From: Thermoanaerobaculales bacterium
GTDB taxonomy: Bacteria > Acidobacteriota > Thermoanaerobaculia > Thermoanaerobaculales > Sulfomarinibacteraceae
Direction of reading: 5' to 3'
DNA length: 64,000 bases
Assembly (NCBI GenBank): GCA_025456145.1
Contig: JALOLD010000009.1
Location: forward strand, 64,899 to 128,898
The translations under genes and the position numbers were made by a program. Each line of letters opens with the position of its first letter. Within the stretch, counting starts at the first letter, position 1. The notes below the pieces were generated by a model. That model was not told where the DNA came from. It saw only the letters and a program-made list of their open reading frames with translations, and did not search any database. Shown here one piece after another: positions 22,860 through 36,462 of the stretch.

Positions 22860-23740
22860 TCCGCGGCCCCGGCGAAGGCCGCCTCGGCTGCGGCGAGGGC
22901 GGCCCGGTCGACCGGCTCGAAGCGGTCGATCCGGACCCCGGCCAGGGCGCCGGCCGCATCGGGACGCCCGCCGAGCGCGGCCAGGGCGGCGACCGCCGCC
23001 GTCCGGCGGGTCGGGTCGCCCCGGCCGTCGACCGAGCAGAGGACCGAGACCGGCAGCGGCGCCGAGCGGTGGACCACCGCGAGGTCGGAGGCGAACGGCA
23101 GCTCGGGCAGGGCCGCCGCCTGCTCGCCGTCGAGCAGCACCGCGACCGGCTCGCCGCGCGCCGCCCGGCGCAGCGACGACAGCACCGCCCCCGAGAAGGT
23201 GATCGCGACACCGTCGGGCAGCGCGCCCCAGCCGGCGAGCGCCGGCCCCCGGACGAAGGGCTCGGAGTGGCCGGCCAGGCTGACCAGGCTCCAGCCCGCG
23301 AGGTCGGCGGGCCGCGACACCTTGCCGGCAGCGGCCACCAGGACCCACGGCTCGAGGGGCTCGCGGCCGACCGGCACGGCGAGGAGCTCGGGCTCGAGCC
23401 CGAGCTGCTCGCGGTGCTCGAGGAAGAACGGCAGGGTCACCAGCGCGAGGCCGGCGTCGGCCTCGCCGAGGCGCGCCACGCCGCCCTCCTCGGTCTCGAA
23501 GTACACCGCCCTGAAATCGTCCCGACCCCATCCGGCGGCGACGGCCGCAGCGCTCGCCAGACCGTCCATCGCGGGCTGGGCCTCGCCGGTCGAGCCCGGG
23601 TACCCGGGGGCGCAGACGACCAGGGTCAGGGGGTCGGCGCCGGCGAGGCCGGCAAGGGCGAGGCAGGCGACGAGGCACGCCGGGCCCAGGAGCCCTCGGC
23701 AACCGGAGGAAGATCGGGCAGCTAGGGTGAGCAGCGACAT
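22856..23740 (-). CDS. Secreted hypothetical protein, possibly periplasmic solute-binding-like
   Basis: 294 aa with a signal peptide ending AGLAGA/DP. The alternating beta-alpha pattern suggests a periplasmic-binding fold. The functional call is weak. Confidence 0.55.
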   Translation of the reverse strand: MSLLTLAARSSSGCRGLLGPACLVACLALAGLAGADPLTLVVCAPGYPGSTGEAQPAMDGLASAAAVAAGWGRDDFRAVYFETEEGGVARLGEADAGLALVTLPFFLEHREQLGLEPELLAVPVGREPLEPWVLVAAAGKVSRPADLAGWSLVSLAGHSEPFVRGPALAGWGALPDGVAITFSGAVLSSLRRAARGEPVAVLLDGEQAAALPELPFASDLAVVHRSAPLPVSVLCSVDGRGDPTRRTAAVAALAALGGRPDAAGALAGVRIDRFEPVDRAALAAAEAAFAGAAD

Positions 23741-23754
23741 GGAGGCATCATACC

Positions 23755-26127
23755 GTGGCCCTGGTTGACCGCTCGATCGAGGTGCGGCTCGAGCCGCTCT
23801 TCGCCGCCATCGTCCGGCGGCGCTGGTGGATCGTCGCGTTCTACCTGGTGGCGCTCCCGGCGGCGGCCCGGCTCGCCCTCGACATCCCCCGCGACAACTC
23901 GATCGAAAGGATGGTGGTCGCGTCGGACCCCGATGTCGCCGCGTCGCGCGAGTTCGAGGCCGTCTTCCCCGAGCGCGACACCGTGCTCCTGGTCCTCGAG
24001 ACCGCCGACCCCTTCGGCGCCGCCGCCCTGGCCGAGCTCGAGCGGGTCGAGACCGAGCTCGGCGCGGTCGACGGCCTCGGCGCCTACTCGCTCGCCACCG
24101 TCTGGCGTCGCGCCCGGCCCGGCGCCGGCTCGCCGGCCGACGACCCGGACGGGGTGCGAGGGGTGGTCGCAGGGACCGAGTTCTTCCGCCGCCAGGGCCT
24201 GGTCGGCGACGGCTTCCTGTCGGTCGTCCTCGCCCTCGACGCCCCGGACGCCGCCACCCGCGACCGGCTGCTCGCCGAGATCGAACGGGTCGCCGGGGGG
24301 ATCTCCGGGCACGGCGGCGCCGTTACCAACGTCCGGCGGGTCGGCCGGCCGTGGGTCGAGGCCTGGCTCGAGCGCGAGACCTCGGTAGAGAGCCAGACCT
24401 ACTTCCCGCTGCTCGGCGGCTTCGTCGTCGCCCTGGTCCTCGGGCTCTACCGCTCGTGGCGGGCGCTCGCCGCCATCCTCCTCTCGCTCGCCGCGGCGGT
24501 GCTGCTCGGGATGGCCTTCGCGGGCGCGGTCGGGCTCGGCTTCACGATCGTCTCGGCGCTGGTGCCGTTGACGCTGATGGTCACCGCCACCGCGAGCCTG
24601 GTCTACCTCCACTCCCGTTTCGTCGACCAGCCCGACGGGCTCGATCTCGAGAGCCACCGAGCCCGCGCCCTGGCCAACAAGCTCGTCGCCGTCACCGCCT
24701 CGGTCTTCGCCGCGGCGGTCGGCTTCGCCGCCCTGACGGTGTCCGAGATCCGGCCGATCCGCGATCTCGGGCTGTGGACCGCGGGTGGCCTGCTGCTCGG
24801 CTGGGTGGTGTGCTTCACCCTCTACCCGGCGCTGCAGACCATCTTCCGCGCCCCGACCCGGCGCGAACGCCGGGTGGCCGGGACCTGGGTGGTCCGCGCC
24901 GCCGAGGTGCTGCCGCGCTGGTCCTTCCGCTGGCGGTGGCCGCTCGTGGTCGCCGCGTCGGCGCTCGCCGTCGCCGGTCTGGCGGCGCTGCTCGGCGTGC
25001 CTGGGCTGCTGCCCGGAATGGAGCTCGAGACCGACGCCCTGGCCTATATCGACCCCGACGAGCCGGTGGCCCGGGACACCCGGTACTTCGAGGAGACGGT
25101 GCTCGGCCTGCAGTCGGCCAAGATCTGGATCACCACGCCCGAGCTCGGCGTCGTCGATCCCGGGGTGCTCGGCGCCCTCGACCGGCTGACCGTCGCCCTC
25201 GAGGGACAGCCGGCGGTCGGCTCGGTGGTCGGGCTGCCGTCGATCCTGCGCCTGCGCCGCCACCTCGCCGGGCTCGACGAGGCCCTCCCGAGCGACCGCC
25301 CCGCCCTCGAGCGGGTCGCCGCCGAGCTCGAGCAGCTCCTGCTCACCGAGCCGTCACTCGCCCAGTGGGTCGACCTCGGAAGCCTCGCCTCGACCTATCT
25401 GACGGTGACCACCGCGGCGGGCTCGGAGCACCGGATGAGCGACCTCACGGCGGCCGTCGAGAGCGCCTGGGCCGAGGTCGCGGCGGCCGACCCCGGGCTC
25501 GCCTCCTGCACCTACCGGCTGACCGGCAGCGGGGTGCTCCAGGCGACGATCGCCGGCCACCTCGTGCCGACCCTGGTCGAGAGCTTCGCCATCACCTTCA
25601 CGATCATCTTCGTCACCTTCGTGCTGGTCTTCCGCTCCGGCCCGGCGCGGCTCAACGCGATGGTGCCGTCGCTGTTCGCGATCCTCGTCACCTTTCTGGT
25701 CATGCGGCTGACCGGGATCCCGCTCAACATCGCGACGATCCTCATCGCCACCACCGTGCTCGGGGTCACCGAGAACGACCAGATCCACTTCTTCTACCAC
25801 TTCCTCGAGCGGCGCAACGGCGGCTCGACCGAGGCCGCCCTGGGTCATGCGATCCGCGTCGCCGGTCACGCCATCCTGTTCGCCACGGTCATCAACGCCG
25901 GCGGCTTCCTCGCCCTGGCCCTTTCCGACCTGCCGCCGATGCGCCAGTTCGGGATCGTCACCGCGTTGGCCTTCGCCCTCGCCATGCTCGCCGACTTCAC
26001 CGCCCTGCCGGCCGCGCTGTGGATCCTCTTCCGCGAGCGTCCGACCGCCGGGTCCCCTCCCCAGGGGGACGACGCTGGGCCGGGGTCCGGAGACGGGGGC
26101 CCGGGCTTGCGCGGACCGTTACAATGA
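23755..26127 (+). CDS. RND-superfamily exporter of the MMPL/HpnN type
   Basis: 790 aa. It has two 6-TM bundles, each preceded by a large loop. It starts at a GTG 14 bp from the divergent gene. Confidence 0.85.
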   Translation: MALVDRSIEVRLEPLFAAIVRRRWWIVAFYLVALPAAARLALDIPRDNSIERMVVASDPDVAASREFEAVFPERDTVLLVLETADPFGAAALAELERVETELGAVDGLGAYSLATVWRRARPGAGSPADDPDGVRGVVAGTEFFRRQGLVGDGFLSVVLALDAPDAATRDRLLAEIERVAGGISGHGGAVTNVRRVGRPWVEAWLERETSVESQTYFPLLGGFVVALVLGLYRSWRALAAILLSLAAAVLLGMAFAGAVGLGFTIVSALVPLTLMVTATASLVYLHSRFVDQPDGLDLESHRARALANKLVAVTASVFAAAVGFAALTVSEIRPIRDLGLWTAGGLLLGWVVCFTLYPALQTIFRAPTRRERRVAGTWVVRAAEVLPRWSFRWRWPLVVAASALAVAGLAALLGVPGLLPGMELETDALAYIDPDEPVARDTRYFEETVLGLQSAKIWITTPELGVVDPGVLGALDRLTVALEGQPAVGSVVGLPSILRLRRHLAGLDEALPSDRPALERVAAELEQLLLTEPSLAQWVDLGSLASTYLTVTTAAGSEHRMSDLTAAVESAWAEVAAADPGLASCTYRLTGSGVLQATIAGHLVPTLVESFAITFTIIFVTFVLVFRSGPARLNAMVPSLFAILVTFLVMRLTGIPLNIATILIATTVLGVTENDQIHFFYHFLERRNGGSTEAALGHAIRVAGHAILFATVINAGGFLALALSDLPPMRQFGIVTALAFALAMLADFTALPAALWILFRERPTAGSPPQGDDAGPGSGDGGPGLRGPLQ

Positions 26128-26161
26128 GGGCGGCACGAGGACGACACGGGAGGGGGCGCCG

Positions 26162-28588
26162 GTGGGTCTGAGGCACCAGACGGTTCGGCTCGCGGTCATC
26201 GCGGTGGTGGCGGCGGCCGCCCTCCTGCCGCCGTCCGCGGCCGCCCAGGAGACCGGCGAGGTCAACGGCACCGCGGTCGACCAGAACGGGCTCGGCCTGC
26301 CCGGGGTCACGGTCGCCGCGGTCGGCCCGACCACCCGGGCGGTCCTCAGCGGGCTCGAGGGCCGCTACCGCATCGTCGGTCTGCCCGCCGGCAGCTACCG
26401 GGTCACCGCGACGATGCCGGGCTTCGCCACCATCGAGGACGTGCTCGACATCGCCGCGGGCGCCGCGGTCGAGCTCGACTTCCGGCTCCAGCCGGCCTTC
26501 GAGGACACCGTCGTCGTCTCGGCATCGCGCACCCCGGTGCTGCTCGAGGACGCTCCGACGACGATCAGCGTGGTCGGCCGCGACATCATCGAGACCCGGC
26601 CGGCGAGCAACATCGGCGATCTGCTGCGCGAGGTCCCGGGGGCCAACGTCGTCCAGTCGTCGGCGCGCGACGTCAACGTCGCAACCCGCGGCCCGGCGGC
26701 GTTCCTCACCGGGTCGCAGCTCGCCCTGATCGACGGCCGCCCGCTCTACTTCGACTTCTTCAACGTCATCTTCTGGGACCTCGCCTCGGTGCAGAACAAC
26801 GACATCGAGCAGATCGAGGTGGTGCGCGGTCCGGCCTCGGCGATGTGGGGCGCCAACGCCGCGACCGGGGTGGTCAACATGGTGACCCGCGCACCGCGCG
26901 ACTCCCAGGGCCTCGAGCTCGCGGTCACCGGCGGGCTGATGAGCCGGTCGAGCGAGGCCGGCGGCACCGGCGGGCTGGGCAGCCTCAACGTCCGCTGGGC
27001 CGACGCGCCGAGCGACCGTCTGGCCTACCGGATCTCGGCCGGGGTCTCGGCGAGCGACCCCTACCAGCGGCCGACCGGGATGATCCCCGAGGTCTCGACC
27101 CCGATCGAGCCCGCGGTCACGGTCGGCGGCGGCAGCTACGAGGACGTCCCCTACGACAACAACGGCACCCTCCAGCCCAAGATCGACGTCCGGGTCGACC
27201 AGGAGCTCGAGGACGAGGGAAGGCTCCTCTACGCCGCCGGCGTCGCCTTTACCGAGGGCATCATCCAGACCCCGATCGGCCCCTTCGACGCCGAGCGCGG
27301 CACCAACCTCGCCTACGCCCAGGTCGCCTACAACCGCGGCGGCTTCCACTCGCAGCTCTTCGCCAACTACCTCCAGGGCAAGGCGCCGAGCCTGATCTCC
27401 CTCGACGCCGAGGGCAACCCGCTGCGCATCGACTTCACCAACGGCGTCTACGACCTCGACCTCGGCTGGGGCGACCTGTTCTGGGGCAGCCACCTGTGGT
27501 CGTTCGGCGGCAACATCCGCGCCAACACCTTCGACCTGTCGATCGCCCCCGATGCCGAGGACCGGCTCCAGGCGGGGGTCTACGTCCAGGACGAAATGAG
27601 GCTCGGCGCCTTCCAGCTCGCCCTCGCGGCGCGCGCCGACTACTTCTCGAACCTCGACGACCTCAACTTCTCGCCGCGCGCCGCGCTGATCTGGACGCCG
27701 GTCGCCGGCCACTCCTTCAAGGCCTCGTACGCCCGCGCCTTCCGCGCGCCCTCGGCGATCGAGAACTCGCTCGAGCTGTCGATCATCGGCGGCTACTTCC
27801 CGGTCAGCGAGTTCGACCCGCGGCTCGAGGAGGACTTCCCTCTCGTCGTCAACACCTACGGCAACCCGGATCTCGAGGCCGAGACCATCGAGTCCCTCGA
27901 GCTCGGTTACGCCGCGGTTCTCAACGGCGGCCGGACCCGGCTCGAGCTCAACGCCTATGTCAGCGAGGTCCACGACATGATCTCGACCTCGCCGTCGAAG
28001 GAGGCGCTCATCGAGGCCGGGGTCGACCCCTACTACACCTCCGCCAACCCACCCCCCGGCTGGCCGCTCAACCCGATCGTCATCGACTTCCTGGCCCAGC
28101 TCGGCATCCGGCTCCCGTCGAACGTGATGGCCCTCAACATCGGGTCGATGCGCGACACCGGGGTCGAGGTCTCGGCGAGCCACCTCTTCCGCAGCGGTCT
28201 CGCCGTGTTCGCCAACTACTCCTACCAGAAGCTGCCCGAGCCGCTCGACCCGGTCGGCGACCCCGACCGGCCGCCATCCGACACCGTCCACACCCCGCCG
28301 AGAAACCGCTACAACCTCGGTCTGAGCTACAACGGCCCGGTCTGGCTCGGCAATGTCACCGTCAACCACGCCGACGAGGCCTTCTTCGCCCAGGGCCTGC
28401 AGCCCTTCTACTACGGCTACGGCGACGACTACACGCTGGTCAGCCTGAGCGCCGGCCGGCGCTGGAGGGCGGGCCGGCTGACCACTAACCTCAAGGTGCT
28501 CAACCTCCTCGACGACCCGGTCAAGCAGCATGTCTTCGGCGACGTGCTGCGCCGCACCGTGATGGTCGAGGCGCTGCTCCGCTTCTGA
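26162..28588 (+). CDS. TonB-dependent outer-membrane receptor with N-terminal carboxypeptidase-regulatory-like domain
   Basis: GTG at 26162. Components are a signal peptide, a CarboxypepD_reg-like domain (GRYRIVGLPAGSYRVTATMPGF), a plug (DAPTTISVVGRDIIE) and a long beta-barrel ending in Phe (ALLRF). Confidence 0.9.
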   Translation: MGLRHQTVRLAVIAVVAAAALLPPSAAAQETGEVNGTAVDQNGLGLPGVTVAAVGPTTRAVLSGLEGRYRIVGLPAGSYRVTATMPGFATIEDVLDIAAGAAVELDFRLQPAFEDTVVVSASRTPVLLEDAPTTISVVGRDIIETRPASNIGDLLREVPGANVVQSSARDVNVATRGPAAFLTGSQLALIDGRPLYFDFFNVIFWDLASVQNNDIEQIEVVRGPASAMWGANAATGVVNMVTRAPRDSQGLELAVTGGLMSRSSEAGGTGGLGSLNVRWADAPSDRLAYRISAGVSASDPYQRPTGMIPEVSTPIEPAVTVGGGSYEDVPYDNNGTLQPKIDVRVDQELEDEGRLLYAAGVAFTEGIIQTPIGPFDAERGTNLAYAQVAYNRGGFHSQLFANYLQGKAPSLISLDAEGNPLRIDFTNGVYDLDLGWGDLFWGSHLWSFGGNIRANTFDLSIAPDAEDRLQAGVYVQDEMRLGAFQLALAARADYFSNLDDLNFSPRAALIWTPVAGHSFKASYARAFRAPSAIENSLELSIIGGYFPVSEFDPRLEEDFPLVVNTYGNPDLEAETIESLELGYAAVLNGGRTRLELNAYVSEVHDMISTSPSKEALIEAGVDPYYTSANPPPGWPLNPIVIDFLAQLGIRLPSNVMALNIGSMRDTGVEVSASHLFRSGLAVFANYSYQKLPEPLDPVGDPDRPPSDTVHTPPRNRYNLGLSYNGPVWLGNVTVNHADEAFFAQGLQPFYYGYGDDYTLVSLSAGRRWRAGRLTTNLKVLNLLDDPVKQHVFGDVLRRTVMVEALLRF

Positions 28589-28604: not shown

Positions 28605-29765
28605 GTGACGGCGTCGCACCCGGACCGCAAACGAACCCGTCGTCGGGACGCGGCGCTGGCGATCGGCTGCCTGCTCATCGCCTCGTGCGCCTCGCGCACC
28701 CATTTCCCGTATGACCCCGGCTCGGCGACCGCGTTCCGCCCGGCCGGGCTCGAGATCGACCCGCCGCGGCAGCCGGTCGCGATCACCAGCCGGCTGGTCG
28801 ACACCGACCGTCGCTACGAGCGCCACCGTCTCGGCTTCCCCTCGGCCGGCGACAACGGCCAGCCGGACGGGATGGTCGCGGTCGACTACCATCGCAGCCG
28901 GCTGCCCGGCCGCCACCCGGTGGTCGTCGTCCTGCCGATCTGGGGCCGCCACGTCTATCCGTCCAACGCGATTACCCGCACCCTCCGCAAGCGCTCGGAC
29001 GGGGCGGTCCACGTGCTCAACGTCCTCGGGCCCGATCTCCTGGTCGACTGGGAAGGGCTCGCCGCCGCCGCCGCCGCGGGCGATCCCGACGCCTTCCTCG
29101 CCACCCTCGCCGAGGGGGTGGCCCACGAGCGGACGATCATCACCGATGTCCGTCGGCTCGTCGACTGGGCCTCGGCGCGACCCGAGGTCGACTCGAGCGC
29201 GATCGGCGTCGTCGGCTTCAGCCAGAGCGCCATCGTGGCGCCGGTGGTCGCCGCCCTCGACCCGCGGATCGGCGCCCTCGTCGCGGTCATGGGCGGCGCC
29301 GAGCCGCACCTGGTGCTCGCCCACTGCGAAGGCGGCCGGGTCGAGGAGATGCGCTCCCGGGCCGCGGCGGCCTTCGGCTGGGACAGCGAGGAGCTGGCGG
29401 CCCGGCTCGAGCCGGTCTTCGCGCCGATCGACGCCGCGAGGTACTCGGGCCTGGTCGACCCGGAACGCGTGCTGATCATCGAGGCCGGCGCCGACGGCTG
29501 CATCCCGGAGCGCTCGCGCGACGCGCTGTGGCGGGCGATGGGCCGGCCCGAGCGCTGGGTGATCGGGACGACGCACAAGATGGCCTTCCTCGCGATGACG
29601 CCGGTCAACGGCAACTGGCTCCAGCAGCGGATCTGGGAGTTCCTCGCCGAGCGGTTGCTCGCCCCGGAGGACGCGGGCGCTCCGCACGACCTCCGGGCGG
29701 CATCGACGACCGCCGAGGGCGATCGGAACCGGACCCGGCGGGGCGAGGCGCCGCGGAAGGACTGA
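28605..29765 (+). CDS. Lipoprotein alpha/beta-hydrolase (dienelactone-hydrolase-like)
   Basis: It has a lipobox (LLIASC) and a nucleophile elbow (VVGFSQSA). Candidate Asp (EAGADG) and His (GTTHK) residues complete a triad. Confidence 0.65.
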   Translation: MTASHPDRKRTRRRDAALAIGCLLIASCASRTHFPYDPGSATAFRPAGLEIDPPRQPVAITSRLVDTDRRYERHRLGFPSAGDNGQPDGMVAVDYHRSRLPGRHPVVVVLPIWGRHVYPSNAITRTLRKRSDGAVHVLNVLGPDLLVDWEGLAAAAAAGDPDAFLATLAEGVAHERTIITDVRRLVDWASARPEVDSSAIGVVGFSQSAIVAPVVAALDPRIGALVAVMGGAEPHLVLAHCEGGRVEEMRSRAAAAFGWDSEELAARLEPVFAPIDAARYSGLVDPERVLIIEAGADGCIPERSRDALWRAMGRPERWVIGTTHKMAFLAMTPVNGNWLQQRIWEFLAERLLAPEDAGAPHDLRAASTTAEGDRNRTRRGEAPRKD

Positions 29766-29871
29766 CCGGCGGACCCAGGCCCGGCTCGCCGGACTCGGGT
29801 GGGCCGTATGCGCCGATGTGGTGGTCGGGTTCCCGGTGCGGACAACCGCTTCGTGGAAGCTCGCCGCGTGG

Positions 29872-30423
29872 TCAGAGTGCCGCGAGGTCGGCAGCGAGCT
29901 CGGCGGCGATCGCCTCCATCGCGCGCGACAGCCCGACCACCACCGCCTCGGGCAGCCCGCCCTCGGCCGGCCGGGTCACGTCGTAGGTCCGCTCGAGCAA
30001 CGGCGCCTCGGCACGACCGGCCCCGGCATCGCGGACGACGATCGCCAGGGACACTCGCGCCGATGGACCGCTCTCGCCGTCGACCTGGCCGAAGGCGAGC
30101 ACCCGGCCGCCGATCACCAGCTCCGCGCCGCCGGCCGCGGTCGCGCCGAGCTCGGCGGCGAGCTTGGCCCGGACCTGGTCGCCGACGCTCGAGACCCAGC
30201 GGTCGGTGGCGTAATGCTCGACCCGGGTCGGCGAGGCCTCGACGAGGATCTCGCTGCGGTCGAGGGCCTCGGTCGGGACGAAGCGCTCGACCCGGACCCT
30301 GCGGTCGACCTGCGCCGCGCCGGCCGGCCGCAGGTCGAGGGTGTAGGTGCGGACGTCGGGGGTCGAGGCGCAGGCGCCGAGGAGCAGCATCAGCAGCGGC
30401 ACGACGGTCGGTCGTTTCGTCAT
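29872..30423 (-). CDS. ABC-transport auxiliary lipoprotein (PqiC/YmbA-like)
   Basis: It has a lipobox (LLLGAC). 183 aa. It has a 4-nt overlap with the MlaD-like gene. The pattern (Y.L....) is typical of PF03886. Confidence 0.8.
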   Translation of the reverse strand: MTKRPTVVPLLMLLLGACASTPDVRTYTLDLRPAGAAQVDRRVRVERFVPTEALDRSEILVEASPTRVEHYATDRWVSSVGDQVRAKLAAELGATAAGGAELVIGGRVLAFGQVDGESGPSARVSLAIVVRDAGAGRAEAPLLERTYDVTRPAEGGLPEAVVVGLSRAMEAIAAELAADLAAL

Positions 30424-31448
30424 TTCCCTCCTCCTTCGCGACCCCGCGGCGTCGCGCCGTAGACCAGCGAGCCGGGCTGGTCGGCGAGCGTCTGCGACAG
30501 CGTCCTGAGGTTGCGGGTCGTCGCCTCGAGGTTGCGCAGGATCAGCTCGAGGGTCGGCCGCTGCTCGTCGAGCAGCCCGGCGGTGTCGCCGCCGAGCCGC
30601 TCGAGGTGCTCGAGGGTCCGCTCGAGCGACGCCGAGAGCTCGTCGATCCGCCGGGCGGCGGTCTCGGTCAGCTCCGCGAGGTTGCCGACGGTCTCGCGGA
30701 GCGGCTCGCGGTTCTCCTCGACGGCGGCGTTGAGGTTGGCGAGGAGCTCGGCGGCGGCCGCCTCGAGCTCGGCGAGCCGCGCGATCACCGCGGCCAGCTC
30801 GGCACGGTTGTCGGCGATCGTCGCGTCGAGGGTGGTCGCCGCCGAGGTCCCGGCGTCGAGGGTCCGCTCGAGCGCCGCGGTCACCGCCGCGAGGTCGACC
30901 ATCTCCTCGCCGGTCGTCGCGGCCTCGGCGCGCGCCCGGTCGACGCCGAGCAGCGCGATGACGCCGTCCAGGGTGGTCTCGAGCCGCGTGACGACGCCCT
31001 CGAGGTCGGGGACGTCGAACAGCCCGCCATCGGTCGTCACCGAGGCGATGCGATCGCCCGAGACGTGGAGCGCGGCCTCGGCGCTCCCGGTCGAGATCTC
31101 GAGGTGCTTGCCGGTGGTCAGGCTGACCTGCTCGATGCTCGCGACGCTGTCGTGGTTCACCGGGACGTCGGCCGGCACCTCGGCGACCACCCGGATGCGC
31201 GACCGGTCGTCGGGGTCGGTCCCGATCTCGACGACCTTCCCCGACTTGACCCCGCCGAACCGCACCTCGGCGCCGAGGTTGAGCCCGTTGATCCTCGTGA
31301 AGTCGGCGATGAAACGGTTGGGCTCGCCGGCCCCCGAGCCGCAGCCGCGGATGGCGGCGACGAAGCCGATGAGCACGACCAGGCTGGCAAGCACCATGAC
31401 GCCGGCCCTGATCTCGGTCGCGGTGAAGCTGCGTTGATCAGCTGGCAT
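30420..31448 (-). CDS. mlaD: MlaD-like MCE-domain protein with long C-terminal helical extension
   Basis: ATG at 31448 preceded by AAGGTGGAG. Components are an N-terminal TM, a single MCE domain (FTRINGLNLGAEVRFGGVKSGKV) and about 200 aa of Ala/Leu/Glu-rich helix. Confidence 0.85.
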   Translation of the reverse strand: MPADQRSFTATEIRAGVMVLASLVVLIGFVAAIRGCGSGAGEPNRFIADFTRINGLNLGAEVRFGGVKSGKVVEIGTDPDDRSRIRVVAEVPADVPVNHDSVASIEQVSLTTGKHLEISTGSAEAALHVSGDRIASVTTDGGLFDVPDLEGVVTRLETTLDGVIALLGVDRARAEAATTGEEMVDLAAVTAALERTLDAGTSAATTLDATIADNRAELAAVIARLAELEAAAAELLANLNAAVEENREPLRETVGNLAELTETAARRIDELSASLERTLEHLERLGGDTAGLLDEQRPTLELILRNLEATTRNLRTLSQTLADQPGSLVYGATPRGREGGGK

Positions 31449-31459
31449 GGTCTCCACCT

Positions 31460-32263
31460 TCAGTCGACGGCGGTGAGCGATCTCGCCCACTCGGTCTCGT
31501 CGGCGTCGGACTCGGCCGGTCGGCGGGTGAGGAAGTCCCGGATGTAGGGGTCGTCCGAGCCCTCGAGCTCGGCCAGGGTCCCGATCCCGGCGACCCGGCC
31601 CCGGTGCAGCATGCAGACCCGGTCGGCGATCAGCCTGACGCTCTCCATCTCGTGGGTGACCACCACGCTGGTCAGGCTGAAGGTCGACCGTAGGTTGCGG
31701 ATGAGCTCGTCGATCCCGGCCGCGACGATCGGGTCGAGCCCGGCCGAGGGCTCGTCGTAGAAGATGATCTCCGGGTCCATCGCCATCGCCCGGGCGATGC
31801 CGGCTCGCTTGCGCATGCCGCCGCTGAGCTCGGACGGCAGGAGCTCCCCGGCGCCGCCGAGCCCGACCAGCTCAAGCTTGATCCGGGTCATGATGTCGAT
31901 CGTCGACTCTTCGAGCCGGGTGTGCTCGCGCAGCGGCAGGGCGACGTTGTCGGCCACCGACAGCGAGCCGAGCAGCGCCGCCCCCTGGAAGCACATCCCG
32001 ATCTTGCGTCGGATCTCCATCTGCTGCTCGTCGGACATCGCGGTGAGGTTCTGGCCGTGGATCGCGATCCTCCCCGACCGCGGCCGCATCAACCCGACCA
32101 GGGTGCGCAGCAGGGTCGTCTTGCCCGAGCCGCTGCCGCCCAGAATGACGAAGATCTCGCCCGGCCGGACCGAGAAGCTGACCCGGTCGAGCACGACCTT
32201 GTCGCCGTACGCGACGACCAGGTCCTCGACCTCGATGGCGTGCCGATCCTCTTTCATGGTCAC
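31460..32263 (-). CDS. mlaF: MlaF-like ABC transporter ATP-binding protein
   Basis: Walker A GGSGSGKTT, signature LSGGMRKR and Walker B IIFYDEP. Confidence 0.9.
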   Translation of the reverse strand: MTMKEDRHAIEVEDLVVAYGDKVVLDRVSFSVRPGEIFVILGGSGSGKTTLLRTLVGLMRPRSGRIAIHGQNLTAMSDEQQMEIRRKIGMCFQGAALLGSLSVADNVALPLREHTRLEESTIDIMTRIKLELVGLGGAGELLPSELSGGMRKRAGIARAMAMDPEIIFYDEPSAGLDPIVAAGIDELIRNLRSTFSLTSVVVTHEMESVRLIADRVCMLHRGRVAGIGTLAELEGSDDPYIRDFLTRRPAESDADETEWARSLTAVD

Positions 32264-33051
32264 AGGTAGTAGAACAGAACGGTGAAAACCAGGTCAACGA
32301 CGATGATCAGGAAGATCGCCACGACCACCGACGCGGTGGTCTCGCGGCCGACCCCCTCGGCGCCGCCGTCGACCCGGAAGCCGCGGTAGACCCCGACCAG
32401 GCAGATGACGAGGCCGAAGAATAGGCTCTTGACCATCCCCGTGACCAGATCCTTCTCGACGATCGCGCCGGTGGTCTGCGCGAGGTAGATCTCGGGCTCG
32501 ACCCCGACGACGAGGACCGACGACACCCAGCCGCCCACGATCATGATGAGCATCGCGATGACGGTGACCGAGGGGACGGCGGTGGCCATCGCCAGCAGCT
32601 TCGGCGCCGCGAGGTACTTGACCGGGTGGACGCCCATGACGGTGAGGGCGTCGAGCTCCTCGTTGACCTTCATCGTGCCGATCTCGGCGGTGATCGCCGA
32701 GCCGCAGCGGCCGGCGATCAGGATGGCGGTCATCAACGGCGCGAGCTCGCGCAGCGCCGACACCGCGACGAGATCGGCGATGAAGCGGTTCGCCCCCCAC
32801 CGGTCGAGGGTGTAGGAGGCCTGGAGGGCGATGATGACGCCGATCAGGAAGCAGATCATCCCGACGATCGGCAGCGAGCGGACGCCGTACTCGACGAAGT
32901 GCTCGACCGCCGAGCGCCAGCGGAAGCCGCGCCCCTTGAGCGGCGCGACCGTCAGCCAGTACACGGTCTCGACGATCAGGACCGAGACCCCGAGGACGGC
33001 GCCGAGCTGGCGCAGCGCCCAGCGGCCGAGCCGTCCGACGACGACGATCAC
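32260..33051 (-). CDS. mlaE: MlaE-like ABC transporter permease
   Basis: 263 aa with 5-6 TM segments. It has the MlaE family pattern (EIGTMKVNEELDAL). A GTGA overlap couples it to the upstream STAS gene. Confidence 0.9.
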   Translation of the reverse strand: MIVVVGRLGRWALRQLGAVLGVSVLIVETVYWLTVAPLKGRGFRWRSAVEHFVEYGVRSLPIVGMICFLIGVIIALQASYTLDRWGANRFIADLVAVSALRELAPLMTAILIAGRCGSAITAEIGTMKVNEELDALTVMGVHPVKYLAAPKLLAMATAVPSVTVIAMLIMIVGGWVSSVLVVGVEPEIYLAQTTGAIVEKDLVTGMVKSLFFGLVICLVGVYRGFRVDGGAEGVGRETTASVVVAIFLIIVVDLVFTVLFYYL

Positions 33052-33359
33052 CGCTCGGGCCTCACCTCGAAGACGCTGTCGAGGCGGGCGAGCTCGAGGA
33101 CCTTGAGCACCGCCGGGGACGGCGCCACCAGGGCAAAGGCCTTGTCGTGCTCCTTGGCGCTGCGCAGCCCCTCGACCAGGGTCGCGACGCCCGAGGAGTC
33201 CATGTAGCTCACCCCGCCGAGATCGACGCCCACCGCGCCTTTCGCCCGGGGCACCGCGGCGAGCACCGCCTTGCGGAGCTCGGGCGAGCTGTAGAGGTCG
33301 ACGTCGCCGGTGACGACGACCCGCGTCTCGTCGGCGGTCACGAAGGTCTCAACCTTCAC
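33048..33359 (-). CDS. STAS-domain protein (anti-sigma antagonist / MlaB-like)
   Basis: 103 aa. The conserved motif VDLGGVSYMDSSGVATLVE includes the phosphorylatable Ser position of SpoIIAA/RsbV. Confidence 0.85.
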   Translation of the reverse strand: MKVETFVTADETRVVVTGDVDLYSSPELRKAVLAAVPRAKGAVGVDLGGVSYMDSSGVATLVEGLRSAKEHDKAFALVAPSPAVLKVLELARLDSVFEVRPER

Positions 33360-33362
33360 CGT

Positions 33363-33803
33363 TCACCTCGCCGCGCCTCCCCTCCGGAGCCTCATGGTGA
33401 CACAATTGCCACGGGTCGTGCCAGGGCAGAAGCGGACCTCGTCGAAGACCTCGTAGATCAGCTTGACCCCGAGCCCGCCCGGCGTCACCTCGTCGGCGGC
33501 GGGTCTGCTCAGCGGCCGGTACTCGGCGCACTCGGCCGGGCACGGGATCCCCTGGTCGCTCACCGTGATCTCGACCCATTCGTCGGTCCGCGACAGGACC
33601 AGCTCGACCCGGCCGTCGGCGCGACCCCGGTAGGCGTGGCGGATCGCGTTCGAGCACGCCTCGTCGACCGCGAGGACGATCTCCGACCGCCGTTCCGGGA
33701 CGAGATGGAGGACCTCGAGCCAGGTCTGGAGCACGCCCCGGATCAGCCCGAGCAGCTGCGGATCCGAGCTCACCACGAGACGGACGTCGTCCGGCTCAGC
33801 CAT
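33363..33803 (-). CDS. RsbW/SpoIIAB-like serine protein kinase (HATPase_c)
   Basis: 146 aa. It has an N-box (EACSNAIRHAY), a G1-like motif (VSDQG) and a G2-like motif (PGGLGVKLI). Confidence 0.8.
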   Translation of the reverse strand: MAEPDDVRLVVSSDPQLLGLIRGVLQTWLEVLHLVPERRSEIVLAVDEACSNAIRHAYRGRADGRVELVLSRTDEWVEITVSDQGIPCPAECAEYRPLSRPAADEVTPGGLGVKLIYEVFDEVRFCPGTTRGNCVTMRLRRGGAAR

Positions 33804-35472
33804 CGCCCGACCCGTTGAGCTTGAAGGCGATCATGGTGCAGTCGTCGTGGGGGGTGCGCGGGCTGCAGAAGGCGTCGACGTCGGCGAGCACCGCCTCGAC
33901 GAGCTCGTTCGGCGAGACCCCCGGCCGGCCGAGCGCCAGCTTCTCGAGCCCGGCCAGCCCGTACTCTTCGTCGGCGCCCCCACCGTTGGCGCCTCGCCTC
34001 GCCTCGACGATGCCGTCGGTGTAGAGGAGCAGGGTCTCGCCGGGCGCGACCGTCGTCTCCTCGTCGCTCCAGTCGGCGTCCTCGAGGATGCCGAGGGGCG
34101 GCCCCGACGCCGGCAGACAGCTCGCCACCCGCCCCGGGGCGATGCGCAGCACCGGGTGGTGGCCGGCGTTGGCCGCCATGACGTGCCCGGTGCGGAGGTT
34201 GAGCGCGACCAGCGCCACGGTGCAGAAGGTCCCGCGCCGGCTGCGCGCGACCATCCGCCGGTTGAGCCGCCGGAGGACCTCGGCGGTCGACTCGGCGCCG
34301 GTCGCGCAGAGCCGGAACTCGGCGAGCAGCAGGGCCATGGTGAGGGCCGCCGGCACGCCCTTGCCGCTGACGTCGCCGATGAGCAGGCCGACGTGGTCGG
34401 CGTCGAGCCTGGCGAAGTCGTAGAAGTCGCCGCCGACGACCCTGGCCGGACGGGTCAGGCCGAAGACCTCGAAACGCCGGTCGTCGGTCGGCCAGTCCCC
34501 GACCAGGAAGCTCTCCTGGATGGTCCAGGCGGCCTCGATGTCCTGGTCGACGCGCTGCTTGGCGAGCAGGCTCTCGTGGACCCGCGCGTTGTCGAGGGCC
34601 AGGCCGGCGCTGTTGCCGGCCGCCGCGGCGAGCAGCATGTCGTCCTCGGTGTAGTCGCGGTCGGCGAGATCGGTGTCGATGTAGAGGATGCCAAGGATCT
34701 CGCTCCGGGTCCGAATCGGGACGCACAGGATCGAGGTCAGCCGGAGCGCCGCGATGCTCGCGCTGCTGTCGATGTCGTCGTCGGACCGCGCCGATCGGTA
34801 GAGGACGCTTTCGCCGCCCTCGAGCACCTGGCGGGCGACGCTGCCGCTGATCGCGATCCGGTCGAGCCCGACCCGGCTCGCGACGCCGTCCTGGATCGTG
34901 TGGACGAGACCACACACCGCGCACGGCCGCAGCTCGAAACCCTCGCCGGCGAAGAGCACCGCGCCGCGCTGGGCGTGGACCGCCCGGATCGTCGTCGAGA
35001 GGATGCTGTCGACGAGCTCGCAGGCCTCGAAGGTCGTGGCGAGCGAGTTCATCAGGGTGTAGGCGGCCTCGAGCAGCTCCTTCGGCCGCGAGGTCGGCGG
35101 CGCGCTCGACCGGCCCAGCTCGTCGACCACGGTCTGGAGAAAGACCGTCTTGGGGACCGGCGCCGGCTCGGCCGCCGCCTCGAGCACGAAGCGCAGCGAC
35201 GTCGCGCCGATCCGGATGTCGTCGCCGTCGGCCAGCCGGCAGCTCTCGATCGGTTCGCCGTTGACCAGCGTGCCGTTGCTGCTGCCCAGGTCGCGGCAGC
35301 GCCAGACCCCGTTGTCGCGGAAGATCCGGAGGTGGCGACGCGACGCCGCGAGATCCCTGATCACCAGGTCGCAGCCCTCCCCGCGGCCGACCACCAGGGA
35401 CGACCCGACCGGGGTCCGACGGCCTTCCTGGCCGCTCCCGGCGACGATGAACGCTCGATCCGTGATCGACAT
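33796..35472 (-). CDS. FHA-GAF-PP2C (SpoIIE/RsbU-type) serine phosphatase
   Basis: ATG at 35472. The FHA domain carries VVGRGEGCDLVI..SRRH..LGSSNGTLVNG. A central GAF-like region follows. The PP2C domain carries VGGDFYDF and DVSGKGVPAAL. Confidence 0.85.
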   Translation of the reverse strand: MSITDRAFIVAGSGQEGRRTPVGSSLVVGRGEGCDLVIRDLAASRRHLRIFRDNGVWRCRDLGSSNGTLVNGEPIESCRLADGDDIRIGATSLRFVLEAAAEPAPVPKTVFLQTVVDELGRSSAPPTSRPKELLEAAYTLMNSLATTFEACELVDSILSTTIRAVHAQRGAVLFAGEGFELRPCAVCGLVHTIQDGVASRVGLDRIAISGSVARQVLEGGESVLYRSARSDDDIDSSASIAALRLTSILCVPIRTRSEILGILYIDTDLADRDYTEDDMLLAAAAGNSAGLALDNARVHESLLAKQRVDQDIEAAWTIQESFLVGDWPTDDRRFEVFGLTRPARVVGGDFYDFARLDADHVGLLIGDVSGKGVPAALTMALLLAEFRLCATGAESTAEVLRRLNRRMVARSRRGTFCTVALVALNLRTGHVMAANAGHHPVLRIAPGRVASCLPASGPPLGILEDADWSDEETTVAPGETLLLYTDGIVEARRGANGGGADEEYGLAGLEKLALGRPGVSPNELVEAVLADVDAFCSPRTPHDDCTMIAFKLNGSGDG

Positions 35473-35621
35473 GGTTGATCCGACTCTACCGACGCTACCG
35501 TGCCCGGCCGCACGGCGCAAGCGGCAGACCCGGACCGGGCGCGGCCGGTTCTCCGCTACAATGCTCTCGGACGCCTCGAAACCGACCCCGAAGACGCAAC
35601 CGGACCGACGGGAGGTCGATC

Positions 35622-36008
35622 GTGACGAGACTGGGAGCTGACCGCGGGCGCTGGGCCGCGCTGGTTCTGGTCGCGGTCGTCGCCGCGGCCGGCTGCGACT
35701 CGGTCGAGCTGACGATCGGCGTCGAGCCCGGCCCCGGCGGCGCCCTCGTCGTCGCCAATGCCAACGACCGGGAGTGGCATGACGCCCGGCTCCTCGTCGA
35801 GGCGGTCGAGAGCGACAACAGCACCACGGTGTGCGACGACCGGACGGTCGAGCGGTGGCCGCCCCGCGGCACCGTGACGGTGCCGGCCTGCGGGGCCAAG
35901 ATCCGCCTGACCCTGACCACCGGCGGCGAGACCGCCCGCTTCGCCTGGGCCAACGGCACGCTCTACCGTCGATTCGGCCGCAAGGAGGTGCCGGTCGGAA
36001 GCTCTTAG
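35622..36008 (+). CDS. Small lipoprotein (hypothetical)
   Basis: GTG at 35622 preceded by GGGAGG. It has a lipobox (VAAAGC). 128 aa. Confidence 0.6.
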   Translation: MTRLGADRGRWAALVLVAVVAAAGCDSVELTIGVEPGPGGALVVANANDREWHDARLLVEAVESDNSTTVCDDRTVERWPPRGTVTVPACGAKIRLTLTTGGETARFAWANGTLYRRFGRKEVPVGSS

Positions 36009-36081
36009 TGATCAGTTTTTAGTTCTTAGTTTTTGTAGATATCGCTGAGATCTGGAATCGGGAGCTCGCTTAGGCTGGGAG

Positions 36082-36462
36082 GTGATGATGAACCGGATGC
36101 TCGGAGTGGCGGCGCTCGCGCTCGTCGTCGTCGTGGCCGGCTGCGGCGGGCCGCAGATCCTGACCGAGAAGCGGATGGTCGAGTGGGGGCCGATCCTCAA
36201 CATCTACATGGGCACCAACATCCAGGGGGGGAACTCCTTCCCCGAGACCCTAGACGAGATGCCGCCCGACCTCACCGCCGACCTCAAGCGGACCGACGGC
36301 TGGGGCAACCCCCTGCTCTACCGGCTCCTCCGGATCGACAAGTACAACCTGATCTCGGCCGGTCCGGACGGCGAGTTCGGCAACGCCGACGACATCGTGC
36401 TCGAGAACGGCGCCTTCTACGACGCCGCCAAGATCTACGCCGCAAGCCCGCTCAAGCGCTGA
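36082..36462 (+). CDS. Lipoprotein with type II secretion GspG-like C-terminal (pseudopilin globular) domain
   Basis: It has a lipobox (VVVAGC). DGWGNPLLY...ISAGPDGEFGNADDI resembles the T2SSG domain, but no prepilin (GFTLIE-type) leader is present. Confidence 0.6.
   Translation: MMMNRMLGVAALALVVVVAGCGGPQILTEKRMVEWGPILNIYMGTNIQGGNSFPETLDEMPPDLTADLKRTDGWGNPLLYRLLRIDKYNLISAGPDGEFGNADDIVLENGAFYDAAKIYAASPLKR

Follow-up and report, generated by a model that had tools for sequence, protein, structure and literature searches.

Introduction

In RsbV/SpoIIAA modules, a kinase phosphorylates a STAS protein and a PP2C phosphatase dephosphorylates it. A different STAS protein, MlaB of E. coli, is required for association of MlaF and assembly of the lipid transporter MlaFE, and for its ATPase activity, which the T52A substitution abolishes (Thong 2016, PMC5016091). 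Thr52 is central in the MlaF-MlaB interface, where T52E weakens binding, and phosphoregulation of MlaB has been called "one particularly intriguing possibility", with no kinase known (Kolich 2020, PMC7367683). Here we describe a seven-gene operon on the minus strand (29872-35472) of a 64-kb stretch of DNA from a Thermoanaerobaculales bacterium (the window), in which genes for a sensor phosphatase, an RsbW-like kinase and a STAS protein are followed directly by those of an Mla/Pqi-type lipid ATP-binding cassette (ABC) transporter. The STAS protein is probably an MlaB-like activator of MlaF when unphosphorylated, switched off by the kinase and on by the phosphatase, with the transporter itself as the output.

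The locus resembles E. coli MlaFEDB in encoding a small cytoplasmic STAS protein with mlaF and mlaE, in the Ser/Thr at the start of helix α2 of that protein (Thr52 in E. coli, Ser55 here), and in a C-terminal extension of MlaF bearing an aromatic/Leu handshake motif. It differs in that the STAS protein is of the RsbV/SpoIIAA type and is encoded upstream of mlaE (last in the operon in E. coli), in the dedicated kinase and PP2C, both absent in E. coli, and in a long MlaD and a PqiC-like lipoprotein that replace MlaC and MlaA. The Brucella transporter MpcEFDA comprises a STAS-MlaE fusion, MpcF, a 331-amino-acid needle-forming MpcD and the PqiC-like MpcA, with no MlaC (Lannoy 2025, PMC12436622). 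Shared with Brucella abortus Mpc are the MlaE-type permease, the MlaF-type ATPase, an MlaD of ~330-340 amino acids with a helical needle, the PqiC-like lipoprotein, the lack of MlaC, and the association of a STAS module with the permease. In Brucella this module is fused to the MpcE N-terminus, whereas here it is free-standing and translationally coupled to mlaE; it is also paired here with a kinase and a PP2C, and none is named among the four mpc operon genes (PMC12436622).

The B. subtilis switches RsbU/RsbP-RsbV-RsbW-SigB and SpoIIE-SpoIIAA-SpoIIAB-SigF share with this operon the same three protein families, the DSSG phospho-serine motif, tightly packed operons, and an N-terminal sensor domain on the PP2C. 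Unlike them, the operon has no sigma factor found nearby, and its conserved neighbor is an ABC lipid transporter. Non-sigma outputs, as proposed here, have precedents in the STAS-to-glycosyltransferase pathway of Anabaena HenR (PMC13555669), in Pseudomonas SiaABCD, which acts on the diguanylate cyclase SiaD (PMC8457831), and in the partner-switch-like module SypE/SypA of Vibrio fischeri (PMC10120452). Each places a phosphorylatable STAS or STAS-like protein under a PP2C and a kinase and acts directly on an enzyme or machine; none of the three targets is an ABC transporter or a lipid-transport system.

Every part of the present module comes from a known family; the wiring is the unusual feature and is apparently undescribed. 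Neighborhood surveys of MCE operons (Casali and Riley 2007; Isom 2017) list STAS, Tol, VacJ and DUF330 as neighbors and no kinase or PP2C, and a full-text literature search found no paper linking a partner-switch kinase or phosphatase to Mla. Phosphorylation of MlaB was hypothesised in both Thong 2016 (PMC5016091) and Kolich 2020 (PMC7367683). A phospho-regulated MlaB, presented as new wiring in a preliminary description of this DNA, had thus been proposed before, and it is the dedicated kinase and phosphatase that appear new.

Operon architecture

The minus strand between 29872 and 35472 contains seven open reading frames (ORFs) with coding-type composition (GC content of 0.90-0.97 at third codon positions, GC3, and 0.41-0.54 at second positions, GC2) in a window of 72% GC. 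The genes and their relevant elements are as follows.

33796..35472, minus strand: FHA-GAF-PP2C (SpoIIE-type) serine phosphatase, 558 amino acids (Pfam; visible motifs)
33363..33803, minus strand: RsbW/SpoIIAB-like GHKL serine kinase, 146 amino acids (HATPase_c_2, E 7e-28)
33048..33359, minus strand: single-domain STAS protein, 103 amino acids, predicted switch subunit and MlaB analogue (STAS_2, TIGR00377)
33168..33206, minus strand: STAS signature Y52-M-D-S55-S-G-V-A-T-L-V-E-G64 (conservation)
33195-33197, minus strand: Ser55, predicted phospho-acceptor (position of E. coli MlaB Thr52)
32260..33051, minus strand: MlaE-family permease, 263 amino acids (Pfam MlaE, E 4e-74; TIGR00056)
31460..32263, minus strand: MlaF-family ABC ATPase, 267 amino acids (ABC_tran; best NCBIfam match MlaF)
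31463..31525, minus strand: MlaF C-terminal extension with E-W259-A-R-S-L263-T (alignment to E. coli MlaF)
30420..31448, minus strand: long MlaD-like MCE protein, 342 amino acids (Pfam MlaD; NCBIfam PqiB, TIGR00996)
29872..30423, minus strand: PqiC/MpcA-like auxiliary lipoprotein, 183 amino acids (ABC_trans_aux, E 4e-11; lipobox)

The genes are tightly packed. The PP2C and kinase genes overlap by 8 nucleotides (-8), a 3-nucleotide gap (+3) separates the kinase and STAS genes, and the STAS stop codon TGA and the MlaE start codon GTG share a 4-nucleotide GTGA overlap. Further downstream, MlaE and MlaF overlap by 4 nucleotides (-4), MlaF and MlaD are 11 nucleotides apart (+11) when ATG 31448 is taken as the mlaD start, and MlaD overlaps the PqiC-like gene by 4 nucleotides (-4). 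Both the mlaD start and the phosphatase start, ATG 35472, are backed by homologue alignments beginning at residue 1. The ORF coordinates reproduce exactly the junctions given in the preliminary description, including the STAS gene running into the MlaE start, and the gene order confirms its placing of the kinase and the FHA-GAF phosphatase directly upstream of the STAS gene; its domain identities (FHA-GAF-PP2C, RsbW-like kinase, STAS, MlaE/F/D, PqiC-like) are matched by Pfam and NCBIfam.

None of the seven genes has a paralogue in the 64-kb window, and a search for a Hanks kinase there was also negative. A promoter/terminator scan of 29400-36200 returned no match and is uninformative because the genome is that of a 72% GC acidobacterium.

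At the 5' side of the operon, a divergent 177-amino-acid ORF on the plus strand (35475-36008; GC3 0.94, no Pfam match) has its 5' end 3 nucleotides from the PP2C start, so the operon promoter region must overlap this ORF or its upstream region. At the other side, an alpha/beta-hydrolase gene (28605-29765) converges on the operon end.

Conservation of the linkage

Starting from an alignment of 24 kinase homologues, related loci were collected around the 80 best kinase relatives, with 10-kb flanks, from one-genome-per-species reference contigs, and were searched by tblastn with the seven window proteins (kinase-first sample). Kinase, STAS and MlaE genes lie within 5 kb of each other in 59 of the 80 loci, and two more carry kinase and MlaE on contigs that stop short of where STAS would lie. 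Another eight loci are cut off too soon to be judged, leaving 72 informative loci, and mlaE lies within 5 kb of the kinase in 61 of these (~85%). The linked loci carry ~12 phylum-level labels in their record titles: Acidobacteriota, Hydrogenedentota, Nitrospirota, Cytophagia, KSB1, Calditrichota, Desulfobacterota, Verrucomicrobiota (Verrucomicrobiia), Auribacterota, Tectomicrobia, Nitrospinota, and Xanthomonadales-type Gammaproteobacteria. The adjacency of STAS, kinase and mlaE genes, first noted in this single operon, is therefore conserved across the survey. The idea that the kinase is a generic anti-sigma factor that lies near mla genes by chance was considered and rejected, the adjacency being too conserved (61/72).

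The usual order is (PP2C)-kinase-STAS-mlaE-mlaF-mlaD-(pqiC-like). In collinear loci, the nearest in-frame candidate for the mlaE start typically lies at -17, -4 or -1 relative to the STAS stop, or follows it by <30 nucleotides. Two other arrangements occur. Desulfobacula-type loci (L024, L034, L044, L053, L085) carry mlaF-mlaE-STAS divergent from PP2C-kinase, and locus L023 has the order STAS-mlaE-mlaF followed by PP2C-kinase. The linkage is kept across all three arrangements, and when the cluster splits, the STAS gene stays with mlaFE and not with the kinase. The STAS protein therefore behaves as expected of a transporter subunit, which argues against mere co-transcription.

This behavior bears on a scheme in which the RsbW-like kinase, not the STAS protein, binds and inhibits MlaF or MlaE, so that unphosphorylated STAS would sequester the kinase and phosphorylated STAS would free it to block transport. 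Such an arrangement follows canonical partner-switch logic, and the kinase is closest to RsbW and SpoIIAB; its gene is linked to mlaEF as tightly as the STAS gene in most loci, and in Xanthomonadales-type loci it is fused to the phosphatase, which makes it a dedicated component of the module. We nevertheless regard this scheme as unlikely, since it is the STAS gene that remains with mlaFE after a split, the subunit bound to MlaF/MlaE in known Mla and Mpc systems is a STAS domain, and MlaF has kept the C-terminal motif for docking at the MlaB interface.

The linkage also appears when sampling starts from the STAS protein instead of the kinase. Among five diverse representatives taken from the STAS profile search described below, MlaE is present on all three contigs long enough to judge (L086, L088, L090) and the kinase in four of the five. 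In one of them (L088:1944-11687, GCA_039187085.1), a kinase-STAS pair is convergent to a canonical short-MlaD operon, MlaF-E-D-MlaC. The pair has a REC-PP2C and a hybrid histidine kinase to one side and, to the other, a Hanks kinase (Pkinase plus FGE-sulfatase). Transporters of the Mpc type are thus not the only ones to which the switch is linked.

Ten of the 80 kinase-first loci contain the kinase alone, and seven of these are metagenome-assembled genomes of Chthoniobacterales or Verrucomicrobiae (L047, L056, L061, L066, L074, L079, L081). Their HATPase_c_2 kinases measure ~135 amino acids, and no STAS, PP2C or mla gene was detected in these seven loci. In the one examined by Pfam (L056), the orphan kinase lies between an AraC-type regulator and ruvB/xseA, with no STAS gene. 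We rejected the Chthoniobacterales kinase-only loci as counter-examples because they represent a separate orphan subfamily adjoining ruvB and lacking STAS.

The STAS protein

The STAS protein has STAS_2 as its best Pfam match (E 3e-19) and scores 71.8 bits against the TIGR00377 anti-sigma antagonist model (cut-off 53.45). It contains the motif VSYMDSSGVATL, in which YMDSSGVATL places the acceptor at Ser55; the DSSG phospho-acceptor motif is thus retained, as had been read from the translation at the outset. Ser55 aligns with Thr52 of E. coli MlaB, in a comparison that used an MlaB sequence whose numbering agrees with PMC7367683. An AlphaFold2 model (predicted local distance difference test score, pLDDT, 96) displays the topology β1-β2-α1-β3-α2-β4-α3-β5 with no helix after β5. 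Foldseek places RsbV from the RsbV/RsbW complex first, with a template modeling (TM) score of 0.88, and RsbV, TM1442 and SpoIIAA span 0.84-0.88; the same three proteins are the matches of a phmmer search of the PDB.

Conservation is concentrated around the predicted acceptor. Across 62 Mla-linked STAS sequences, S55, G57 and A59 are invariant (62/62), E63 is present in 61, and Y52, D54, S56, T60 and V62 are near-invariant. A profile search of 1.84 billion cluster representatives yielded 41,316 matches; the signature DSSG[VIL]A.[LFMI][VI]E is present in 112 of the best 150 of these representatives, clustered at 50% identity, pointing to a large STAS family.

Pfam STAS_2 contains both MlaB-like and MlaE-fused domains (Thong 2016, PMC5016091). 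In the window, the STAS protein is a separate 103-amino-acid ORF with its own stop, and no STAS-MlaE fusion is seen in 54 collinear loci. A tblastn search of plasmids with the STAS protein returned generic actinobacterial and Firmicute STAS genes only. Exact matches to the window STAS protein were confined to contigs of <2 kb. As the best 150 representatives of this subfamily, judged by length, likewise include no such fusion, a point taken up in the Discussion, the evidence for fusion comes solely from the published Mpc and Pfam statements.

The transporter

A MlaE-family permease, a MlaF-type ATPase and an MCE-domain protein are encoded in a single operon, as in Mla/MCE-type ABC transporters. 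The permease scores 237 bits against TIGR00056 (cut-off 212). For the ATPase, the best NCBIfam match is MlaF at 214.6 bits, below the 441-bit equivalog cut-off, and the best PDB matches are MlaF of A. baumannii, P. aeruginosa and E. coli. The MlaD-like protein is composed of an N-terminal transmembrane helix, one MCE domain (Pfam MlaD, residues 58-135) and ~200 amino acids of C-terminal helices; residues 193-347 match positions 375-531 of the 542-position PqiB model (NCBIfam, E 3e-8), and the protein also matches the MCE family TIGR00996. The PqiC-like lipoprotein belongs to ABC_trans_aux (DUF330/PqiC family) and has a lipobox, LLGAC, read from the translation.

A long MlaD with a PqiB-like helical C-terminus and a PqiC-like lipoprotein as the last gene constitute the Mpc-type layout, and no MlaC or MlaA is encoded in the seven-gene operon. 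Judged from these sequences, the transporter is a predicted Mpc-like (Mla-Pqi chimera) trans-envelope lipid ABC transporter. The long MlaD needle and the PqiC-like lipoprotein, together with the lack of MlaC and MlaA, indicate that its role is probably trans-envelope lipid transport generally and not outer-membrane asymmetry specifically. Of the earlier suggestion that the switch is tied to outer-membrane lipid homeostasis, the Mla/Pqi-type lipid transporter therefore stands, and the specificity for the outer membrane does not.

When the window MlaF and 54 MlaF proteins of related loci were aligned with E. coli MlaF, the C-terminal extension of the linked loci showed a conserved D-[YW]-x-x-[SD]-L-[LTV], which falls at E. 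coli Y261/L265/L266. In E. coli, these three residues form a "handshake" at the MlaF-MlaB interface and were shown to be required (Kolich 2020, PMC7367683). The Desulfobacterota MlaF C-terminus, DGPIP..F..D.NYLDELL, is near the E. coli sequence DGPVPFRYPAGDYHADLL. The extension carries an aromatic-x3-Leu motif, which may dock beside the STAS protein here.

Kinase and phosphatase

The three components of a partner switch are all present, namely a phosphorylatable STAS protein, a GHKL kinase with intact boxes, and a sensor-PP2C. The closest solved structures to the kinase are RsbW (6m36, the best PDB match) and SpoIIAB. Its N-box (E48/N52/H56), G1 box (D83xG85) and G2 box (GGLG) are invariant across an alignment of 24 homologues with 46-90% identity.

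The invariance of these boxes is one of several points against a reading that makes the STAS protein a constitutive structural subunit in the manner of MlaB, with the kinase and phosphatase directed at some other substrate or the kinase reduced to a pseudo-kinase partner. E. coli MlaB does work without a known kinase and needs Thr52 for ATPase activity as such. Here, however, the DSSG of the STAS protein, which is of the RsbV type, is invariant, most loci co-encode a PP2C, and the operon contains no other STAS protein or candidate substrate, which makes this the least probable of the alternatives we weighed and, in our judgment, a very unlikely one.

The phosphatase comprises an FHA domain (residues 27-89, ~35206-35394), a GAF domain (152-295, ~34588-35019) and a SpoIIE/PP2C domain (358-552, ~33817-34401; Pfam E 4e-47 for SpoIIE). 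GDVSGKG, YTDG and DDCT, the metal motifs of PP2C, can be seen in the translation, as can GR, SxxH and NG, the phospho-threonine-binding residues of FHA. Pfam analysis of ten Mla-linked phosphatases from different phylum-level groups found GAF-PP2C in all ten, and the FHA add-on occurs in the Acidobacteriota, Hydrogenedentota and Nitrospirales group alone. Both of the input domains initially assigned to this module are thus present here; GAF-PP2C is the common form, and FHA is lineage-specific.

Inputs vary further among loci. One phosphatase carries an additional zinc ribbon (L043), that of L088 is the REC-PP2C beside a hybrid histidine kinase, and that of L090 is an HDOD-PP2C. No adjacent phosphatase is present in loci of Cytophagia (L025, L029), Acidobacteriota/Terriglobia (L028, L035, L078) and Nitrospinota (L083), where the operon opens directly with the kinase (kinase-STAS-mlaE-mlaF-mlaD) and the upstream genes are unrelated (polA, DUF5107-TPR, an MprF-like gene, a TRAP transporter). 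The phosphatase of these operons must be encoded elsewhere or absent. At the other extreme, a Lysobacteraceae metagenome-assembled genome encodes a 577-amino-acid GAF-PP2C-HATPase_c_2 fusion upstream of STAS-mlaE-mlaF-mlaD (L073:8642-10375), a putative single-chain writer/eraser for the STAS protein; the same phosphatase-kinase fusion probably occurs in L062:8189-10372 and L077:2266-4392. Inputs range from FHA-GAF, GAF, REC and HDOD to the GAF-PP2C-kinase fusion and no adjacent phosphatase, and the core is kept. Kinase, STAS and MlaEF thus make up what is invariant.

Sigma factors and flanking genes

Pfam found no sigma domain in ten flanking genes, and tblastn with SigB, SigF and RpoE had no match in the 64-kb window or in any of the 80 related loci with their 10-kb flanks, a search whose three queries give limited sensitivity and whose reach is 10 kb. 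The cognate sigma factor typical of a partner switch is thus not co-encoded nearby, in line with the initial reading that no sigma or anti-sigma target is adjacent. The flanking genes encode an MMPL/RND-like protein, a TonB-dependent receptor, an alpha/beta-hydrolase, two small ORFs, a rhomboid protease, an FG-GAP protein and a trypsin-like protease, with no sigma or anti-sigma protein among them.

An ordinary sigma-regulating switch, with the sigma factor encoded elsewhere and the mla-type genes merely co-transcribed or part of the sigma factor's envelope regulon, would fit the typical anti-anti-sigma and anti-sigma character of the STAS protein and kinase in sequence and fold, the names RsbV and RsbW given to them in source annotations, and the reach of the search for SigB/F-like factors, which covered the window and 10-kb flanks only. 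It is hard to reconcile with the failure of the window and the 80 loci to give any sigma match within 10 kb, with mlaE adjacency in ~85% of informative loci through rearrangements and ~12 phylum-level labels, with the frequent overlap of STAS stop and mlaE start, and with the orphan kinase relatives, which lack STAS as well as mlaE. We consider a distant sigma factor improbable, to about the same degree as direct inhibition by the kinase.

Two further features of the surroundings were recorded. A plus-strand ORF of 126 amino acids (36082-36462), with coding-type GC3 and no Pfam match, combines a hydrophobic segment at the N-terminus with the stretch 'DGWGNPLLY...GPDG' at the C-terminus and may resemble type II secretion pseudopilins. 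The plus-strand genes of the MMPL/RND-like protein (23731-26127) and the TonB-dependent receptor (25847-28588), which has a CarboxypepD_reg N-terminus, lie head-to-tail with an apparent ORF overlap of ~280 nucleotides, and the start of the receptor gene probably lies further downstream.

Discussion

By gene context, the STAS protein behaves like MlaB: it shares its operon with mlaF and mlaE, as in 59 loci, and it has a Ser/Thr at the Thr52 position. Besides the reach of the sigma search, several observations weigh against the model proposed here. The protein scores 17.6 bits against the MlaB equivalog NF033618 (cut-off 90), phmmer against the PDB gives no MlaB match at E<=1, and MlaB chains appear in the Foldseek results only from rank 28 onward, with TM scores of 0.66-0.76. 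By sequence, it is of the anti-sigma-antagonist type and no MlaB orthologue. The conserved Ser55 is not diagnostic by itself, since Thr52 of E. coli is needed for ATPase activity without known phosphorylation, and no STAS-MlaE fusion of this subfamily is found among the best 150 representatives. The linkage has one clear exception, a Hydrogenedentes UBA6118 locus (L020:1640-7190) in which FHA-GAF-PP2C, kinase and STAS genes are followed by those of a PilZ-domain protein and an amidase, with no mlaE within 9 kb.

The proposal that the transporter is the output of this partner switch, made originally from the single operon, is supported by synteny (~12 phylum-level labels, three arrangements and the STAS-first sample) and by the STAS gene following mlaFE. 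The same pairing across ~12 phyla suggests an MlaB-like subunit switched by serine phosphorylation. With no sigma factor found nearby and an ABC lipid transporter as the conserved neighbor, the switch is predicted to act post-translationally, on lipid transport and not on transcription.

In the mechanism that we favor, unphosphorylated STAS would bind MlaF through its α2 helix face, as MlaB does in E. coli. The bound protein would stabilize or activate MlaF2E2 and promote assembly or ATPase activity of the MlaF2E2-MlaD6-lipoprotein bridge. The RsbW-like kinase would compete for the same STAS face and phosphorylate Ser55, detaching STAS from MlaF and turning transport off; the GAF-PP2C, responding to its GAF ligand, would remove the phosphate and turn transport on again. 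In this lineage, the FHA domain of the phosphatase may in addition read phospho-threonine signals. Four points of this scheme are inferred: that Ser55 is phosphorylated, that STAS binds MlaF, which way the effect runs, and what signal GAF senses.

A more general formulation, to which we give even weight for and against, is that a phylum-spanning phospho-switch gates trans-envelope lipid transport, its STAS protein alternating between a serine kinase and MlaF under the influence of a GAF ligand and, in some lineages, of phospho-threonine, two-component or HDOD inputs. To our knowledge, the regulation of bulk lipid traffic between the two membranes of bacteria is largely unknown, and the role of MlaB has been an explicit open question since 2016. 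As kinase, phosphatase and a phosphorylatable STAS protein are co-encoded beside mlaFE in many phyla, the hypothesis can be tested directly with a defined protein set. If it is true, this would be the first ABC transporter shown as the output of a partner switch, carrying partner switching beyond transcription to an ABC transporter under its direct control, and the operon would supply a natural kinase/phosphatase pair for the MlaB phosphorylation hypothesis. The operon family suggests that envelope lipid homeostasis responds to a conserved signal sensed through GAF.

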